DNA of 63,408 bases, counting the filler, from Nitrospirae bacterium CG2_30_53_67 (GTDB lineage Bacteria > CG2-30-53-67), in NCBI GenBank assembly GCA_001873285.1. It is 7 parts of 7 records of this genome, joined end to end, with 100 filler letters (N's around TTAATTAATTAA, not from the genome) between each part and the next. Parts side by side here need not be neighbours in the genome. Positions count along the whole stretch, not along the records: positions 42,755 to 48,836 come from MNYV01000011.1; 6 more parts are not named here. One strand, given 5' to 3'. Both the position numbers and the translations under genes were made by a program. How positions within the stretch are numbered: the first letter of the stretch is position 1; each line of letters begins with the position of its first letter. The notes under the pieces are model-generated. The model saw nothing but the letters and a program-made list of their open reading frames with translations, made no database searches and was not told where the DNA came from. Of the stretch, positions 39,826 to 56,572 are shown piece after piece.

Positions 39826-40083
39826 GGATCATCTCCAAAAGAGTGGGTGAAAACATAAGGGGTCAAGGGGTCGAGGATTCGAGGGGTCAAGTGAAGTGCT
39901 TTTCAAGACTTGAGGGTCCGAGGGTCCAAGGATTCAAGGGGCCGAGTGAAGTGCTAAAAACATCAGAGGTCAAGGGTGCCGGTGTTTTTCTCTGGAGATT
40001 TTGCTTGCGTTTCAGTATTTCACTTGAACCCTTGAACCCTGGAACCCTTGGATCCTTTTTATCTACTAAATGGTAGAAGAACC
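39826..40083. mobile_element. MITE family B, copy 2, with perfect 8-bp target-site duplication
   Basis: TAAAATAA at 39818-39825 and 40084-40091; ends GGATCATCT / AGAAGAACC. Confidence 0.85.
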
Positions 40084-42260: not shown

Positions 42261-42295
42261 ATCCATAAAATTGCGGATTCTTGCTGGTTCCCTTA

Positions 42296-42478
42296 GTGGT
42301 CCAGTTCGTAAATATGGTAACGTACCGACTTGTACTCGGTTTACCGGTAGAGGGTCGCAAGGCGGTTTCATCTCCGCGCGCGACTGAGGCGTACCCCCCT
42401 GGTACACCGCAAGGAGCGGAACGGAGAGAAGGCCGCCTTGCGGCCCTCGAATACTACCGTATTTACGAATACGGCCGC
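42296..42478. mobile_element. MITE family A, copy 2
   Basis: TTA|GTGGTCCAGTTCGTAAATA ... TATTTACGAATACGGCCGC|TTA. Confidence 0.82.
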
Positions 42479-42499
42479 TTAGCATCTTAATTTTTTTTT

Positions 42500-43712: not shown

Positions 43713-45122
43713 TTAAAGGGCGAAAGGCCCGGTCTTCTGCCGTTGCAGATCGATCTCCGCGGCATGGATCAGATCTATAGCCGATTGCACCTCTGTCTCT
43801 TCCATGGATGAAACGCCCACCTGCACGGAAACACCCAATTCGTGCAGGGTAGGGTTCTTGAACGCCAGTTTCTGGAATCGTTTGGCCTGTACGGTCGCGC
43901 CGATCAGGCTGGTCTCCGGGAGGAGGATGGCAAAATCGTCACCCTGGCACCTGGCAGCCAGGTCGGATTTGCGGATGGACTCATTGATCAGACGTCCGAT
44001 GATCCGCAGGGCCTGGTCCCCTTTTTCGATCCCGTGGATCTCGTTCACCTTCCTGAACTGGTTGATGTCGATCAGGATGAGCGACAGATGGCTCTTATAG
44101 CGTTTGGCCCGGTAGATCTCCTTTTCACCGGCTTCAAGAAAACTGTAATAGCCGCAGAGATTGGTGAGAGAGTCGAAGGATGCCACCGCGGTTTTATCGT
44201 TGTGTTCAACCGATTCAAAGACCTGGGCATTGAGCAGAGCGGACTTGGCGGCGTTGGATATTCCTTTCAGGAACCGTATCTCCCGTTCATTGAATGTCTC
44301 CTTGGACCGCGCCGTGCTCAGGAGGAGCGTTCCGATCAGGTCGTCTCCATGCGTGATCGGGACCACCATGAGGGAGAAACATCCGATCTCGTGCAGGATC
44401 TCCCGCACCATGGACATTCGTTCATCCTTGTCTATATCGGGAATTACGACCACGCTCCTCCGTTGAAGCGCTTCCATGATCTCCGGATACTTGTTCAGGT
44501 CGATCTTCAGATCCTGAATCTCCGGCCCGTCGCTGGTGGCCTCTACGATCCCTTCAGACATGTTCTTACCGATCCGGATCACGGAACAGCGTTTGACCTG
44601 GATATGTTCGGAGATCTTCTGGACCAGGCAGTAGAGAATATCCCGGGTTTTTTTCTTGGCGTGAAGTGTGGTGATCAGCTGATTGGTGACGAACAGGTCT
44701 TCCTTTTCGTTTTTGATCTGGTCCATCCTTTTCTTGATCTGGAGGTGGCGCCGTATGTGCGCCAGGAGGAGATCCGCATCAAAGGGTTTGGTGACATAAT
44801 CATTCGCCCCCAGTTCAAAACCGGTCTGGATATCCTTTCCCTTATCCTGAGAGGTCACCATAATGACCGGGATATCCTGGGTGTGATGGTTTTCCCGGAT
44901 GGTTTTCAGGACCTTGAGCCCGTCCATGTCGGGCATGATAATATCAAGGAGGATCAGGTCCGGCGAAAAAACCGCGGCCTTCTGGAGGGCCTCAATTCCG
45001 TTTCCTGCATCTTCGACGATGTAATGGTTTTGGACCAAGAGGTTCTTCAGGGTGGAGCGGATGCTCACGTTGTCATCGGCGATGAGAATTTTATCATGTT
45101 TTATCAATGTGTTACGCTCCAT
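43713..45122 (-). CDS. REC-GAF-degenerate GGDEF response regulator
   Basis: ADD, DLILLDIIMPDMDG, YVTKPF; GAF-like middle; RKSDLAARCQGDDF at the GGDEF position; start could be 45170. Confidence 0.85.
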   Translation of the reverse strand: MERNTLIKHDKILIADDNVSIRSTLKNLLVQNHYIVEDAGNGIEALQKAAVFSPDLILLDIIMPDMDGLKVLKTIRENHHTQDIPVIMVTSQDKGKDIQTGFELGANDYVTKPFDADLLLAHIRRHLQIKKRMDQIKNEKEDLFVTNQLITTLHAKKKTRDILYCLVQKISEHIQVKRCSVIRIGKNMSEGIVEATSDGPEIQDLKIDLNKYPEIMEALQRRSVVVIPDIDKDERMSMVREILHEIGCFSLMVVPITHGDDLIGTLLLSTARSKETFNEREIRFLKGISNAAKSALLNAQVFESVEHNDKTAVASFDSLTNLCGYYSFLEAGEKEIYRAKRYKSHLSLILIDINQFRKVNEIHGIEKGDQALRIIGRLINESIRKSDLAARCQGDDFAILLPETSLIGATVQAKRFQKLAFKNPTLHELGVSVQVGVSSMEETEVQSAIDLIHAAEIDLQRQKTGPFAL

Positions 45123-45249
45123 TCTCGGAAATTCTAAACAGGCCAAGACTTCTGATTCGTATACTACCATAATAAAAGAAAAACATCTGTTTTGACAAGG
45201 ATTTTTATTGGTTTTATTGACATGCCGATTTACCAGTGTTATCCCTTCC

Positions 45250-45278
45250 TTGACACTGCGGCGGGCATCTGATAGAGT
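45250..45278 (+). promoter_or_regulatory. sigma70-type promoter of the radical SAM operon
   Basis: TTGACA-17 nt-TAGAGT with extended -10 TG. Confidence 0.6.
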
Positions 45279-45315
45279 TCAAAAAATTCAAGAACCTATC
45301 CGGAGATCCAACTTG

Positions 45316-45390
45316 ATGAACCGAGACCACCGTACGTTTGCATTTCTTTTTCTCCTTTTCCTTCCTACGGTCGATCTCCTCTTTCCTTGA
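45316..45390 (+). CDS. candidate leader peptide MNRDHRTFAFLFLLFLPTVDLLFP
   Basis: GGAGA about 9 nt upstream of ATG; lies between promoter and first gene; Phe/Leu run. Confidence 0.35.
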   Translation: MNRDHRTFAFLFLLFLPTVDLLFP

Positions 45391-45487
45391 CCCTGACCAG
45401 CCTGAGTTCTGTTTGCCGTGAAGGCGCCAAGACACAAAGAGGATTGTGAGCGGGTATTCCCCCATTATGTGAGACAGTGAGTATCTT

Positions 45488-46648
45488 ATGCCGTTGCAGA
45501 ACACAACATTCAAACCCGACACGATCCGTTATAAGGATGTCCATGCGGAATTGAAAAGCGTCCTGACGGAGATCCGGAGCCATGATCAAAAGGTTTTATT
45601 TGAGCCGGGCCGCGCCCTCTCTTCGGATATCCGGATCGGATATCTGCAGGGGCGGACGGTGCAGAGGCTGGTCATCACGCTCCGGTCCCCGGGCTGTGCG
45701 TGGGTCCGCAAGGGGGGCGGGTGCACCATGTGCGGGCATTATCCGGGGACCACGCAAGGAACGGCGCTTTCGCCTCAGGATTTTTCGGCTCAGTTCAGGA
45801 GGGAGGCCGCGCGCTACCGAGGACGGGACCTGCCGATACTCTGCCTGTACAACTCCGGGTCGGTGCTCAATGAAGAAGAGATCCCGGAAGAGGCCCTTGC
45901 AGGGATATTCGAAGAGATCGAGCGAATGAAGGAGGTCCGCAAGGTTGTTCTGGAGAGCAGGCCTGAGTATTGTTCCGAGGAGAAGATCGCCTGGATCAGA
46001 AAACGCATCGGCGGGAAAGATTTGGAGATCGCCATGGGGCTCGAGTCCTGCAATGACCGGGTCCTCTCCCTGACCCTGAACAAGGGCTTCGTCTCGGAGG
46101 ATTTCCGCCGGATGGCTGAGAGGATCCGGCAGTATGTGGCGATCCGGATTTATGTGCTGCTCAAGGGTCCCTTTCTGACCGAGTCGGAGGCCATCGAGGA
46201 TGCGGTCTCCTCCATCGAATTTGCCCGTACGCTTTCACCGAGCGAGATTCATCTTGAGCCGGCCACGCTGCAGAAACACACCTTGCTCCATTCTTTGCAC
46301 CAGGCCGGGCTGTATGATCTCCCCTGGCTCTGGAGCATCTATGAGGTGCTCAGCCGTGTTGGCGCCGAAAACAGGGTTTATGTCAGCCCGTTCAATCATA
46401 TGCCGAGGCCGGTCCATATTCCTGAAAACTGCCCTGACTGTTCGGAGCAAGTGCGGGACCTGCTCACCCGGCGCTACAATGAAACCTTTGACCTGCAGCC
46501 TGTCCGGCAGTTTCCCTGCGCCTGCAGAGAGAGGTGGGAACACGCCCTCAAAGAAGAGGATCCGAGACCGCTGGCACAGCGGATCCTTGAAGGGCTGCGG
46601 GTGATCCGGCAAGCAGGCGGCCTCCATCGTATGGAGGCCGGATCATGA
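45488..46648 (+). CDS. RaSEA/TIGR01210-like radical SAM protein
   Basis: LRSPGCAWVRKGGGCTMCG (Cx8Cx2C), YNSGS, ESRPEY, EIAMGLES, NKGF, YVLLKGPFLTESEAIED, PWLWSI.EVL, NCPDC, CAC...W. Confidence 0.85.
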   Translation: MPLQNTTFKPDTIRYKDVHAELKSVLTEIRSHDQKVLFEPGRALSSDIRIGYLQGRTVQRLVITLRSPGCAWVRKGGGCTMCGHYPGTTQGTALSPQDFSAQFRREAARYRGRDLPILCLYNSGSVLNEEEIPEEALAGIFEEIERMKEVRKVVLESRPEYCSEEKIAWIRKRIGGKDLEIAMGLESCNDRVLSLTLNKGFVSEDFRRMAERIRQYVAIRIYVLLKGPFLTESEAIEDAVSSIEFARTLSPSEIHLEPATLQKHTLLHSLHQAGLYDLPWLWSIYEVLSRVGAENRVYVSPFNHMPRPVHIPENCPDCSEQVRDLLTRRYNETFDLQPVRQFPCACRERWEHALKEEDPRPLAQRILEGLRVIRQAGGLHRMEAGS

Positions 46649-47760
46649 GACCGAGGCCTTTCTTCATGGAGCGATGGCTCATGGCCAACCGGTTCCACGT
46701 CCGTTACAATCTGGCCGAGAGCGGTGTTTCGGATCTGACCTTAAATGAGCTTATCTCCCTCTGCGATATCGATCTCAAGGAACTGATGTCCATCAAGCTG
46801 GAAGACGAAGACACGCGCGGGAGCGAGGCGCTCCGGGAGGAGATCAGCAGTCTCTATCCGGGAAGGAGAGCTGAAGAGGTCATGGTCACCACAGGAACCA
46901 GCGAGGCCCTCTTTATCCTGTTTCATCTCCTGCTCAATCCCGGTGACACCTGCGTCGTCACCTTCCCGGCCTTTCAGGGTCTCTATGAAACCGCCCGCTC
47001 ACTTTCCTGCCGGATCAAATTCTGGGAACTCCGGATTGAAGAAGGCTTTGTGCCGGATTTAAACCGCCTTGCCGATCTCATGGACGACCGGACCCGCCTG
47101 GTGGTGGTGAACACCCCCCATAATCCGACCGGCAAGATCATCCCCATGGAGACGCTGAGCGAGGTTCACCGTCTCTGTCGAGAACGCGGGGCCTACCTGC
47201 TCATGGATGAACATTATCGTTTTCTCCCGCTCAACGGCTCCGCGGGGATCCTCCCCTCGGCCGTGACCCTGGGCGGGGACGTGATCGGGACCGGTTCCAT
47301 TGTCAAATGCTTCGGACTCATGGGTCTTCGCATGGGGTGGATGGTCGCGCCTTTGGATCTGCTGTCGGCGGCCAGGGATTTCAAGGACTACCTCACCCAC
47401 ACGTTATCCCCGATCAGCGATTTCTTGAGTCTTAAGGCCCTGAGAAACCGGGAGGCCATCCTGTCCGTGCACCGGAGCCATGTGCTCAAGAACGCCGCCG
47501 CGCTCAATCAATGGATGAGAGGGCATGAGGCCTTCTTCGGCTGGACCCCGCCCGAGGGCGGCGTGGTCAGCTACCCCCGGATCCTGTTGGATATGGATGC
47601 TGACCGTTTCTGTCAGGATCTGATCGACCGGCAGGGGGTCTTTCTGCTCCCTGCCGGCTCCTTCGAGATGGAGGGGCATGTCCGCATCGGGTTCGGTATC
47701 CGGCATGACGCGTTCCTGGAGGCGCTGGACCGGCTGGACCGTTACCTGAAAGATATGTGA
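46645..47760 (+). CDS. class I/II PLP-dependent enzyme (VioD/capreomycidine-synthase-like subgroup)
   Basis: MERW..YNLAESG, TTGTSEAL, NTPHNPTG, DEHY, GSIVKCFGLMGLRMGW; ATGA overlap with the upstream gene. Confidence 0.88.
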   Translation: MRPRPFFMERWLMANRFHVRYNLAESGVSDLTLNELISLCDIDLKELMSIKLEDEDTRGSEALREEISSLYPGRRAEEVMVTTGTSEALFILFHLLLNPGDTCVVTFPAFQGLYETARSLSCRIKFWELRIEEGFVPDLNRLADLMDDRTRLVVVNTPHNPTGKIIPMETLSEVHRLCRERGAYLLMDEHYRFLPLNGSAGILPSAVTLGGDVIGTGSIVKCFGLMGLRMGWMVAPLDLLSAARDFKDYLTHTLSPISDFLSLKALRNREAILSVHRSHVLKNAAALNQWMRGHEAFFGWTPPEGGVVSYPRILLDMDADRFCQDLIDRQGVFLLPAGSFEMEGHVRIGFGIRHDAFLEALDRLDRYLKDM

Positions 47761-47767
47761 GGAGGGT

Positions 47768-48836
47768 ATGATGAGAATTGGATTCACCTACAACCTGAAA
47801 AAGGACAAGGTCCGGTCAGATCCGAACGGTAGGGACAATCCTGCTGAAGAAGACTGGGATGACTCGGATGCCGAGTATGAAGACCTGGAGACCATAGACG
47901 CCCTTGCAGCGGCCCTTGAGACATGCACAGAGGAGCCTGTGGTCCGCCTCCCGTGCGATCATGCTCTTCCGGCAAGGCTGGAATCCGAGCATCTTGATTT
48001 TGTTTTCAACATTGCGGAAGGGTGGGGCGGACGGAACCGGGAGGCCTTTGCCCCTTCCCTGTTCGAGATCTTCGGGATCCCTTATACTGGATCTGACGGG
48101 CTCACCCTGAGCCTGACCCTGAACAAGGTTCTGACCAAGAAGATCCTGATGGCCGAGGGGATCCCCACACCTGAATTCTTTGTGGTCAGGGATCTTGGGG
48201 AACTCAGGGATATCCCCCTTCCATTCCCCCTGTTTGTCAAACCCTGTCATGAAGGGACCAGCAAGGGGATTCGGAACTTTTCCCTGGTGAGAAACCCGGA
48301 CGAACTGGAAAGGGCCGTGTCGTGGGTCCTGATCAACTATCATCAGCCGGCGCTGGTGGAACGCTTCATCTCCGGGCCCGAGGTGGCTGTCGGCATCCTG
48401 GGGAACGGCCCGGATATCAAAATCCTCCCGCACGCGGAGATCCGTTTTACCGAGCAGAATCCCTTCTACTCGTTTGAATGCAAATCCCTGGTGGACGAGG
48501 AGATCCTCTGTCCGGCCCCCCTGAGTCCGTCCCTCACCATGCGGATAGAAGAGATCGCCCTCGCTGCCTATGAGAGCTTCGGGTGCCGGGATCTGGCCCG
48601 GCTTGACCTTCGAATCAACGAGACAGGCGAGCCTTATGTCCTCGAGATCAATCCGCTTCCAGGCCTTTCACCCCGCTACAGCCTTTTCCCGATCCAGGCT
48701 GCGGCCGCAAGCATGGACTACAAAGCGATGGTCCGTGCTCTCGTGGGGCAGGCCATGAAACGGTACAGCATGGATATGACGGGGAGGAGCGCCCGGAGGA
48801 AGCCCAAGGGCCGGGCATTGATACCCAATGAGGATG
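47768..48836 (+). CDS. D-Ala-D-Ala-ligase-like ATP-grasp enzyme (open into gap)
   Basis: RIGFTYNLK, VFNIAEG..GRNREA, PYTGSD, VKPCHEGTSKGI, RDLARLDLR, LEINPLPGL. Confidence 0.88.
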
Positions 48837-51326: not shown

Positions 51327-51432
51327 AAGGGTTCCAGGGGCCAAGGGTTCGAGGGGTCAAGCGATTCGTTTCCTCTCATTTTCTTCGCCGTTCACTTGAA
51401 CCCTTGACCCCTGGAATCCTTGGACCCTTTTT
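51327..51432. repeat. 8-mer palindromic array of the family B type
   Basis: gggttcca ggggccaa gggttcga ggggtcaa gcg ... cacttgaacccttgacccctggaatccttggaccc. Confidence 0.7.
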
Positions 51433-56288: not shown

Positions 56289-56312
56289 CCTGTCCGGTTG
56301 TTTCGTCTCTTA

Positions 56313-56501
56313 GTGGTCCTGTTCGTAAATATGGTAACGTACCGAGAGGGCCTGCCTGTGCCGGCACGGCAGACAGGTCGTAGGGCGGCCTCATCAAGGC
56401 GCGCGACTGAGGCGTACCCCTCTGGTACACCGCAAGGAGCGGAACGCCGAGGAGGCCGCCCTACGGCACTCGAATGCAACCGTATTTACGAATAGGACCA
56501 C
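56313..56501. mobile_element. MITE family A, copy 3
   Basis: TTA|GTGGTCCTGTTCGTAAATA ... TATTTACGAATAGGACCAC|TTA. Confidence 0.85.
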
Positions 56502-56572
56502 TTAGGACAAAGATATACCAGATTCATGAGCATGGCAATCCGCAAGGGCAAAGGCAGAGACTTTTCGGCCGG

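Follow-up and report, generated by a model that had tools for sequence, protein, structure and literature searches.

A conserved bacterial gene trio uniting a RaSEA-like radical SAM protein, a PLP enzyme of the arginine-cyclase group and a Ddl-like ligase fused to a KamA-like domain: a candidate oxygen-independent amino-acid pathway

The 63,408-nucleotide stretch of DNA analysed here (the window), from the draft genome of the Nitrospirae bacterium CG2_30_53_67 (assembly GCA_001873285.1), carries a trio of coupled genes. Gene 1 encodes a radical S-adenosylmethionine (SAM) protein related to the archaeal enzyme RaSEA, gene 2 a pyridoxal 5'-phosphate (PLP) enzyme of the GntC/VioD/OrfR arginine-cyclase group, and gene 3 a Ddl-like ATP-grasp ligase joined to a KamA-like radical SAM aminomutase domain. 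The three genes, with their four catalytic domains, most likely form a self-contained unit that makes a small molecule from amino acids and does not act on nucleic acids. The reading favoured here, at a probability of about 0.5, is that the locus specifies an oxygen-independent small-molecule amino-acid pathway of a general kind in which a beta-amino acid is joined to a tailored arginine-like amino acid. The enzyme families involved are known, but this conserved combination of them has apparently not been described before, and the RaSEA-like member probably catalyses a reaction new to its family.

The trio sits on a 6.1-kb contig (window 42755-48836, contig C32) of a draft genome, G000, of 183 contigs and 2.37 Mb that is 95.05% complete. 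Its members (Table 1) are real, coupled genes, and their family matches lie far beyond chance since all three are strong. At the junction of genes 1 and 2, ggatcATGAgacc, the two frames overlap by ATGA, and at that of genes 2 and 3, atgTGAggagggtATG, a 7-nt gap contains GGAGG; the coupling described in the first-pass annotation, together with the gene 1 motifs it listed, is thus borne out at the sequence level. The same annotation took position 48836 as the end of the locus. This is the end of the contig and not of gene 3, and a KamA-like fourth domain was missed as a result: contig C123 of the same genome starts with an exact 105-nt overlap to positions 48732-48836, and the gene 3 frame runs on there for 391 codons. 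Two metagenome contigs, L041 and L042, on which gene 1 is 100% and 99.7% identical to that of the window, carry gene 3 as a single uninterrupted open reading frame (ORF), which on L041 (8281-10419) comprises both the Ddl-like and the KamA-like parts. The full gene 3 product is accordingly a 713-aa fusion of an N-terminal Ddl-like ATP-grasp ligase and a C-terminal KamA-like radical SAM aminomutase.

Conservation of the unit was followed through nine genome loci and 18 metagenome loci of the gene 1 clade (one metagenome entry, L046, being the same contig as L004). On genome contigs, the nine loci come from the window's lineage and from Latescibacterota, each with a gene 1 relative of 44-79% identity. 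The PLP gene follows gene 1 in 9/9, two of these copies being cut by a contig end, and the ATP-grasp gene follows in all seven loci with enough DNA. The 18 metagenome loci, with gene 1 at at least 43% identity, agree: the PLP gene comes next in each of the 11 with 200 nt or more of sequence downstream (the contigs of the remaining seven stop before that), and the ATP-grasp gene in 4/4 with enough DNA. The recurrence of the trio in other genomes, which had been put forward as a check on the original proposal, is therefore found as a conserved gene order in two phyla. Beyond the unit itself, no neighbour is common to both.

Two kinds of fusion tie the domains together more closely. P0130 (763 aa) and P0148 (762 aa) combine gene 1 and a PLP domain in one protein, and for this domain VioD and GntC again score best (244 and 234 bits); these proteins nest inside the clade of trio-linked sequences, and their PLP signature residues are the same as in the unfused enzymes. 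The ligase-KamA fusion is found in the window's lineage (718 aa in L002, 696 aa in L003, 713 aa in L041). Among 14 species genomes of the window's phylum, gene 1 is present in three; these three also have the full-length ligase-KamA fusion, which was not found in the remaining 11. The ligase of Latescibacterota-type genomes is a separate protein of about 320 aa, and all three such genomes tested encode a short KamA-like protein with 45-50% identity to the fused domain. Across 168 genomes of the Latescibacterota-type phylum (that of locus L010), gene 1 occurs in nine, and a KamA-like ortholog of at least 60% identity occurs in exactly these nine, two copies being partial at contig ends. A further 14 of the 168 genomes have KamA-like matches only at 42-52% identity; eight of them, examined at the substrate-pocket position discussed below, have Gln (one), His (three) or Asp (three), the eighth genome giving no motif match. 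In three Latescibacterota-type genomes (G014-G016; loci L036, L037 and L038) the Gln-type short KamA-like gene lies directly after a DAHP synthase gene (3/3). The distribution of the unit is rare and patchy within each phylum, which fits accessory metabolism better than tRNA housekeeping.

Gene 1 bears the motifs C70-x8-C79-x2-C82, NSGS, LESRPEY, LLKGPFLTESEAIED, PWLWS, NCPDC and CAC. In searches with hidden Markov models (HMMs) of NCBIfam at E <= 0.01, its sole match is TIGR01210, the RaSEA model, whose cut-off it narrowly passes (221.7 bits against 212.15) with 299 of 313 model positions covered; TIGR01212 (YhcC), raised beforehand as an example of a competing family, gave no match. No Pfam family was matched either, the radical SAM family PF04055 included, and no match was found to PDB by sequence at E <= 0.01 or to phage records by tblastn. 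Residues C70, C79, C82, C315 and C318 are invariant in a 48-row alignment that includes sequences labelled archaeal RaSEA, the Cx8Cx2C motif being present in 48/48, and at least 90% of these family members also have C344 and C346. The AlphaFold model built from the same alignment is confident, with a predicted local distance difference test (pLDDT) value of 94.1, and matches 107 PDB structures at E <= 0.001 with radical SAM enzymes on top, the best folds being the radical SAM cores of TsrM, Elp3 and HydE, all of them remote (12-16% identity, template-modelling (TM) score up to 0.55). By its three-Cys motif and predicted barrel fold, the gene 1 protein is placed in the radical SAM superfamily. 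A predicted complex of the gene 1 and gene 2 proteins (alignments A4 and A5) scored 0.00, with a mark of 0.32, and counts neither for nor against binding.

The RaSEA-like family is large, with 1732 representative clusters matched at E <= 0.001, and the position of gene 1 within it was assessed in a 166-row FastTree and a 62-row IQ-TREE phylogeny. In the latter, the window protein, all trio-linked sequences and the PLP fusions form one clade (support 91) nested in a 25-row clade (support 97). The rows labelled archaeal RaSEA at NCBI, from Methanobacterium, Thorarchaeota, Natronoplasma and Thermoplasmatota, form their own clade (support 99), several supported branches away. The FastTree phylogeny likewise has the window protein in a 36-row clade (support 95), with the RaSEA-labelled rows in a 26-row clade (support 99) across the midpoint root. 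Gene 1 is thus a member of a bacterial clade and phylogenetically not of archaeal type. The earlier description of an archaeal-type RaSEA stands as far as the TIGR01210 score goes, but fails on the tree and on the Latescibacter ortholog in L007, which at 197.6 bits falls below the cut-off, as do the PLP fusion P0130 (165.1) and the more distant P0158 (198.6).

Elsewhere in the family other associations are seen. Some RaSEA-like proteins are fused to TIR (P0164, P0190) or CHAT (P0405) domains, both typical of conflict systems, and the radical SAM part of P0405 is 43% identical to the window protein. A PADLOC search for anti-phage defence systems gave no match for the trio proteins or for a downstream 254-aa ORF. 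In cultured bacteria, more distant homologs of gene 1 (28-35% identity) occur on plasmids: on pSOL1 of C. acetobutylicum (L092) the homolog adjoins DUF1659/DUF2922 gene pairs, on a B. thuringiensis plasmid (L093) it lies within a fatty-acid/polyketide-like cluster with AsnB and ABC exporters, and on pFRL5 of Streptomyces sp. F8 (L094) it is found with P450, SHMT, glycosyltransferase, carbamoyltransferase and heptose genes.

Gene 2 had been described simply as a PLP enzyme, a description that misses its affinity to arginine cyclases. Among the models, it scores highest with GntC (336.1 bits against a cut-off of 415) and VioD (303 against 390.9); it also matches PF00155 (131.6 bits), and its relatives in PDB are GntC (8FFT, 243 bits), the uncharacterised 3OP7 (209 bits) and 4M2J (186 bits). 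Judged by these matches, gene 2 encodes a fold-type I PLP enzyme nearest to the arginine cyclases GntC, VioD and OrfR. The key residues of GntC, according to PMC10367076, are E9, S25, S26, N52, T84, F108, N158, D186, H188, Y189, K219, R227, H250 and R346 (N52 and H250 carrying an asterisk), with N52 tied to recognition of the gamma-hydroxyl and the N52D exchange lowering product more than N52A. These positions were mapped through an HMMER alignment and scored in the 11 unfused PLP proteins of the trio. Residues at E9, S25, F108, N158, D186, H188, K219, R227 and H250 are kept in 11/11 and that at Y189 in 10/11, T84 being replaced by Ser throughout. In terms of the cyclase signature, the catalytic Lys, the N-terminal Glu and the first Ser of the Ser-Ser pair are kept and the second Ser is Gly (11/11); an Arg in the window protein aligns with the Arg by which GntC binds the alpha-carboxylate. 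The enzyme would thus appear to keep the cyclase apparatus and the residues on the guanidinium side and to differ where GntC reads the hydroxyl leaving group.

The ATP-grasp part of gene 3 matches PF07478 (125.8 bits) and two Ddl models (178.7 bits against a cut-off of 243, and 155.8 against 245.65), remaining under every Ddl and Van cut-off; it matches PDB 6U1C at 121.6 bits. The true Ddl of the genome is encoded on contig C22 and scores 327.7 bits against the cut-off of 245.65. The KamA-like part passes the subfamily model TIGR00238 (274 bits, cut-off 199.2) and falls far under all equivalog cut-offs (AblA, TIGR03820, 354.2 against 525.4; Glu, 351.7 against 650; Arg, 327.6 against 600; EpmB, 226.6 against 369.3). 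It aligns with lysine 2,3-aminomutase (PDB 2A5H) at 332 bits and keeps the CxxxCxxC motif and the residues at the Lys337 and Asp330 positions, but differs from 2A5H in that Gln occupies the Asp293 position and Thr that of Cys268, the loop ahead of the PLP lysine is two residues shorter, and the C-terminal Cys-rich tail is missing. Asp293 and Asp330 of 2A5H we take to be the residues that bind the lysine epsilon-ammonium group, and the roles of Lys337 and Cys268 are likewise assumed. Because the side-chain pocket differs, with Gln at the Asp293 site, Asp330 kept and the loop shortened, the substrate of the KamA-like domain is probably not plain lysine. The Gln type is found in every whole-query fusion examined (P0285-P0293, P0295, P0296 and P0319 by motif scan; six of P0297-P0311 by alignment) and also in 28 stand-alone KamA-like proteins.

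That Ddl-like ligases of this subfamily accompany KamA-like radical SAM enzymes had been suggested earlier, and here the two are found fused. A second operon in the genome, on contig C114 (loci L024 and L031), encodes a canonical KamA of 490 aa followed by Ddl-like ligases of 344 and 338 aa; this KamA reaches 522 bits with the AblA model (cut-off 525.4) and has Asp at both the 293 and 330 positions. One of the C114 ligases shares 36% identity with the trio ligase along its entire length, so that the trio ligase, too, is likely to deal with beta-amino acids.

A pathway can be drawn from these family placements, the chemistry of which is inferred throughout. The KamA-like domain would shift the alpha-amino group of an L-amino acid onto the beta carbon. 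The RaSEA-like enzyme, by means of a 5'-deoxyadenosyl radical, would take a hydrogen from the carbon beside the nitrogen of a guanidino- or amidino-type side chain, which is the position that RaSEA is thought to attack in preQ0-lysine, and this position in the arginine-like amino acid would be oxidised or cleaved. The PLP enzyme, with Asp at the GntC Asn52 position, would complete the tailoring by elimination or cyclisation, so that the two steps together would replace the oxygen-dependent hydroxylase-plus-cyclase pairs of aerobes. Finally, the Ddl-like ATP-grasp ligase would link the beta-amino acid and the tailored amino acid via an acyl phosphate to give a dipeptide-like guanidino compound, for which antimetabolite, solute and signal are candidate roles. 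The operon structure with its overlap and 7-nt spacing, the conserved gene order, the co-occurrence of the four domains, the cyclase-type residues kept in the PLP enzyme, the fusions of radical SAM and PLP domains and the fusion of ligase and KamA-like domain all favour this scheme, and P0158, a more remote relative within the family that has a dimethylargininase/arginine-dihydrolase-like domain as fusion partner (165.5 bits), provides a second link to guanidino substrates. The particular order of steps and the choice of arginine as substrate are nevertheless put forward as a tentative and rather doubtful version of the general pathway. More speculative in its reach, and as doubtful, is the idea of RaSEA-like enzymes as a wide class, so far unrecognised, whose members cleave or oxidise the N-CH2 bond in amidine, guanidine, urea or amide adducts that a dedicated partner enzyme has put in place; here, acting with a cyclase-type PLP enzyme, the class member might yield a tailored and possibly cyclic guanidino amino acid without the use of oxygen, which the ligase-aminomutase fusion would then beta-aminoacylate.

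Several observations weigh against this picture. The gene 1 clade includes no member with a characterised substrate, product or activity, and the fusions to TIR and CHAT domains show that the wider RaSEA-like family is not confined to amino-acid metabolism. Gene 2 stays below both the GntC and the VioD cut-offs, and the S26 position is Gly and the N52 position Asp in 11/11 unfused and 2/2 fused forms; since it scores under these cut-offs and is without equivalents of S26 and N52, the PLP enzyme may perform other chemistry, plain transamination included. Nor do the KamA-like scores point to arginine, whose model gives 328 bits as against 352 for Glu and 354 for AblA, all far below their cut-offs. 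The KamA-like gene of the Latescibacterota-type genomes lies apart from the trio, at a distance of about 45 kb in G014; membership of the KamA-like protein in the pathway there rests on co-occurrence among related, non-independent genomes, which is supportive and not proof. A Gln-type KamA-like gene (51% identity) without gene 1 also occurs in one genome, G044. The unit has no conserved neighbour that encodes a transporter, a regulator or a resistance function.

Among other explanations, the one with the largest claim borrows the nitrogen-donor logic of ArcS and RaSEA. The ATP-grasp ligase would couple the amine of an amino acid, possibly the KamA-like beta-amino acid, to a carboxylate, the RaSEA-like enzyme would cut the carrier N-C bond to leave a primary amide, and the PLP enzyme would re-aminate the released aldehyde or keto acid, giving a recyclable ammonia carrier and an anaerobic counterpart of peptide alpha-amidation. 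In archaea, according to PMC11298593, RaSEA removes the lysine skeleton after ArcS has attached lysine, and works as a complex with ArcS. A functional replacement of ArcS by the ATP-grasp enzyme and a radical C-N cleavage, both proposed in the first-pass annotation, would be analogies to this system. The operon would hold all three activities needed for such a cycle, and partners of RaSEA-like proteins that handle N-substituted amidine, guanidine, urea or amide groups are known in the arginine-dihydrolase-like domain of P0158, a GNAT domain fused to the RaSEA-like P0171 and the carbamoyltransferase of the Streptomyces plasmid. We consider this unlikely, however, as the PLP enzyme is nearest to non-transaminating arginine cyclases and keeps E9 and S25, and the aminomutase is left with no obvious role. 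Archaeosine itself, or another 7-deazaguanine modification of bacterial tRNA or DNA made with the ATP-grasp enzyme in place of ArcS, is very improbable. In its favour are the passing RaSEA equivalog score of gene 1 (221.7 against 212.15) and a QueC in the genome (174 bits, cut-off 150.3), as in most bacteria, by which preQ0-type precursors would be made. Against it, the only TGT-superfamily locus of the genome is an ordinary bacterial Tgt (TIGR00430, 524.6 against 306.75) that lies under the arcTGT (157.7 against 350) and ArcS (28.4 against 440) cut-offs, and the ArcS domain DUF5591 (PF17884) gave no match in the 95.05%-complete genome in a search that was positive in three control archaea. 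The genome-wide search for an archaeosine pathway that had been called for thus returned QueC and neither ArcS nor arcTGT. The earlier remark that the contig has no tgt, arcS or que gene carries little weight, because the contig is only 6.1 kb within a chained window. It is the ordinary Tgt and QueC, the lack of an ArcS or arcTGT match, the placement of gene 1 outside the archaeal RaSEA clade and its constant amino-acid-enzyme partners that make archaeosine unlikely; the patchy distribution within each phylum also speaks against it.

A peptide- or protein-directed role is improbable; in it, the carboxylate of a peptide or protein would receive a beta-amino acid from the ligase, and the residue so tethered, as if on a scaffold or carrier peptide, would be the target of the radical and PLP enzymes. 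ATP-grasp and radical SAM enzymes are common peptide modifiers, the ligase shows weak Pfam matches to TTL and ATPgrasp_ST (both below cut-off), and a 24-codon leader small ORF (sORF) precedes the trio in 3/3 species of the window's lineage; yet 19 Latescibacterota-type loci in which the trio is conserved yielded no such sORF, paralogs of the ligase lie beside free-amino-acid aminomutases, and the PLP enzyme keeps the Arg that in GntC binds a free alpha-carboxylate. Fermentation or salvage of lysine or arginine, opened by the aminomutase as KamA opens clostridial lysine fermentation, would make use of a radical C-N cleavage of arginine that might yield guanidine and a semialdehyde. The fusion of an ATP-consuming ligase to the aminomutase follows a biosynthetic logic instead, and no 3,5-diaminohexanoate-pathway genes or dehydrogenases lie beside the unit, which leaves a catabolic role quite improbable. 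Hardly any credence is given to a cell-wall role, in which the ligase would supply peptidoglycan with a variant D-Ala-D-X. Ddl and Van enzymes are its best named matches, but the true Ddl on C22 (327.7 bits) far outscores the trio ligase (155.8, cut-off 245.65), which has an aminomutase as fusion partner and in none of the loci read lies close to mur genes. The favoured reading remains a small-molecule pathway joining a beta-amino acid to a tailored arginine-like one.

Around the trio, the window offers a leader region and a set of lineage-specific neighbours. The promoter-like site (Table 1) corresponds to positions 5763-5791 of L041, and the same TTGACA ... TGATAGAGT/TGATAAAGT arrangement aligns in L002 and L003. 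The Phe/Leu-rich sORF has counterparts in L002 (6767-6841, ending ...DLIFP) and L003 (4627-4701, MNRNHTSLGFLFSLYLPTLNLLFP); over its 24 codons the window copy differs from that of L002 by five synonymous changes and one Leu-to-Ile exchange and shares 15 of 24 residues with that of L003. Promoter-like site and sORF are kept in three species of the window's lineage. As no similar sORF was found upstream of gene 1 in the 19 Latescibacterota-type loci, it falls outside the conserved core, and its candidacy as the precursor of a ribosomally synthesised and post-translationally modified peptide was demoted as lineage-specific. Positions 45100-45560 gave no Rfam match at E <= 5 that would indicate a riboswitch, the leader folds no better than shuffled sequences (z = +2.07), and no terminator-like hairpin was reported in it on the plus strand.

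Table 1. Features of the trio locus, with the artificial joints of the window (positions along the window).
Feature	Position	Strand	Remarks
Gene 1, RaSEA-like radical SAM protein	45488..46648	+	386 aa; Cx8Cx2C and four C-terminal Cys (C315, C318, C344, C346)
Gene 2, PLP enzyme of GntC/VioD/OrfR arginine-cyclase group	46645..47760	+	371 aa
Gene 3, first 356 codons, Ddl-like ATP-grasp domain	47768..48836	+	cut by contig end
Promoter-like site TTGACA-17 nt-TAGAGT	45250..45278	+	TG before second hexamer; consensus match only
24-codon leader sORF, MNRDHRTFAFLFLLFLPTVDLLFP	45316..45390	+	GGAG 10 nt upstream
Artificial contig joints	24535-24634, 30565-30664, 36654-36753, 42655-42754, 48837-48936, 57497-57596	.	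N44-TTAATTAATTAA-N44, not biology

Divergent from the trio, on the minus strand of the same contig (42755-45170), lie a gene for a PleD-like response-regulator diguanylate cyclase (43713-45170) and one for a protein with an MshE-type cyclic-di-GMP-binding N-terminal domain (MshEN), the latter cut by the contig start; both are likewise found upstream in L002, at 75-79% identity, and are the neighbours characteristic of the window's lineage. In Latescibacterota-type loci the neighbours are DsbD, MscS, TrkH and a phosphoribosyltransferase, and an osmolyte role suggested by MscS and TrkH was dropped, this being local synteny only. The window is a chain of separate draft-genome contigs joined at six artificial linkers, and gene neighbourhoods are therefore not readable across the joints. 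Intergenic dispersed repeats lie near contig ends (39826-39980 and 42500-42654 at 97% identity; 42289-42482 and 56306-56505 at 85-95%; 40011-40068 and 51383-51432 at 93%), one of them carrying an 8-nt periodic GAACCCTT-like unit, and probably account for the fragmented assembly.

RaSEA is the only characterised member of its family that was found, and it is known only from archaeal tRNA modification. A literature search, in which subscription journals lay largely outside coverage and some queries were poorly matched, returned no paper on a bacterial RaSEA homolog with PLP or ATP-grasp enzymes and none naming TIGR01210. The locus places a bacterial branch of the RaSEA family, PLP-fused in some organisms, in the company of amino-acid enzymes, namely a ligase and a 2,3-aminomutase of non-lysine type, and thereby provides a compact and tractable three-gene system for finding a RaSEA-like function outside archaeosine synthesis. 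The trio may also show how anaerobes achieve the arginine tailoring that aerobes perform with oxygenases. Should the more speculative idea of a broad RaSEA-like class hold, uncultivated anaerobes would be the source of a new small natural product family, and radical SAM chemistry would gain a new reaction, one on free amino acids. A product would also provide the widespread and so far unexplained association of KamA-like aminomutases and Ddl-like ligases with its first function.

The unit can be compared with several known systems. With the ArcS-RaSEA pair of Euryarchaeota, gene 1 has in common the Cx8Cx2C motif and the C-terminal Cys columns of the labelled archaeal RaSEA sequences, as well as the constant pairing with one particular partner enzyme. 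It differs in being only 30-34% identical to those sequences (alignment A4), in its separate bacterial clade, in a conserved N-terminal extension with an SDIRxGY motif and in its partner, which is a PLP enzyme plus an ATP-grasp ligase instead of ArcS. GntC (PDB 8FFT/8FFU), VioD and OrfR (PDB 4M2J) are the best HMM and PDB matches of gene 2; unlike their systems, the trio operon has no hydroxylase gene of the VioC, GntB or OrfP kind, and a radical SAM gene stands in that place. The gene 3 ligase shares the ATP-grasp fold and C-terminal domain with Ddl and Van ligases, from which it is set apart by an MRIGFTYNLKK-type N-terminal start and an acidic insert, whereas in relation to the uncharacterised KamA and Ddl-like ligase cassettes such as that on C114 the difference is that the two halves are fused, ligase first. 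In the streptothricin and blasticidin S pathways the same logic is met, with a PLP cyclase acting on a modified arginine, a 2,3-aminomutase supplying a beta-amino acid and an amide ligation joining the two. Those, however, are large actinomycete clusters with oxygen-dependent hydroxylases, whereas the trio is a minimal three-gene unit of uncultivated bacteria in which a radical SAM enzyme takes the hydroxylase's place.

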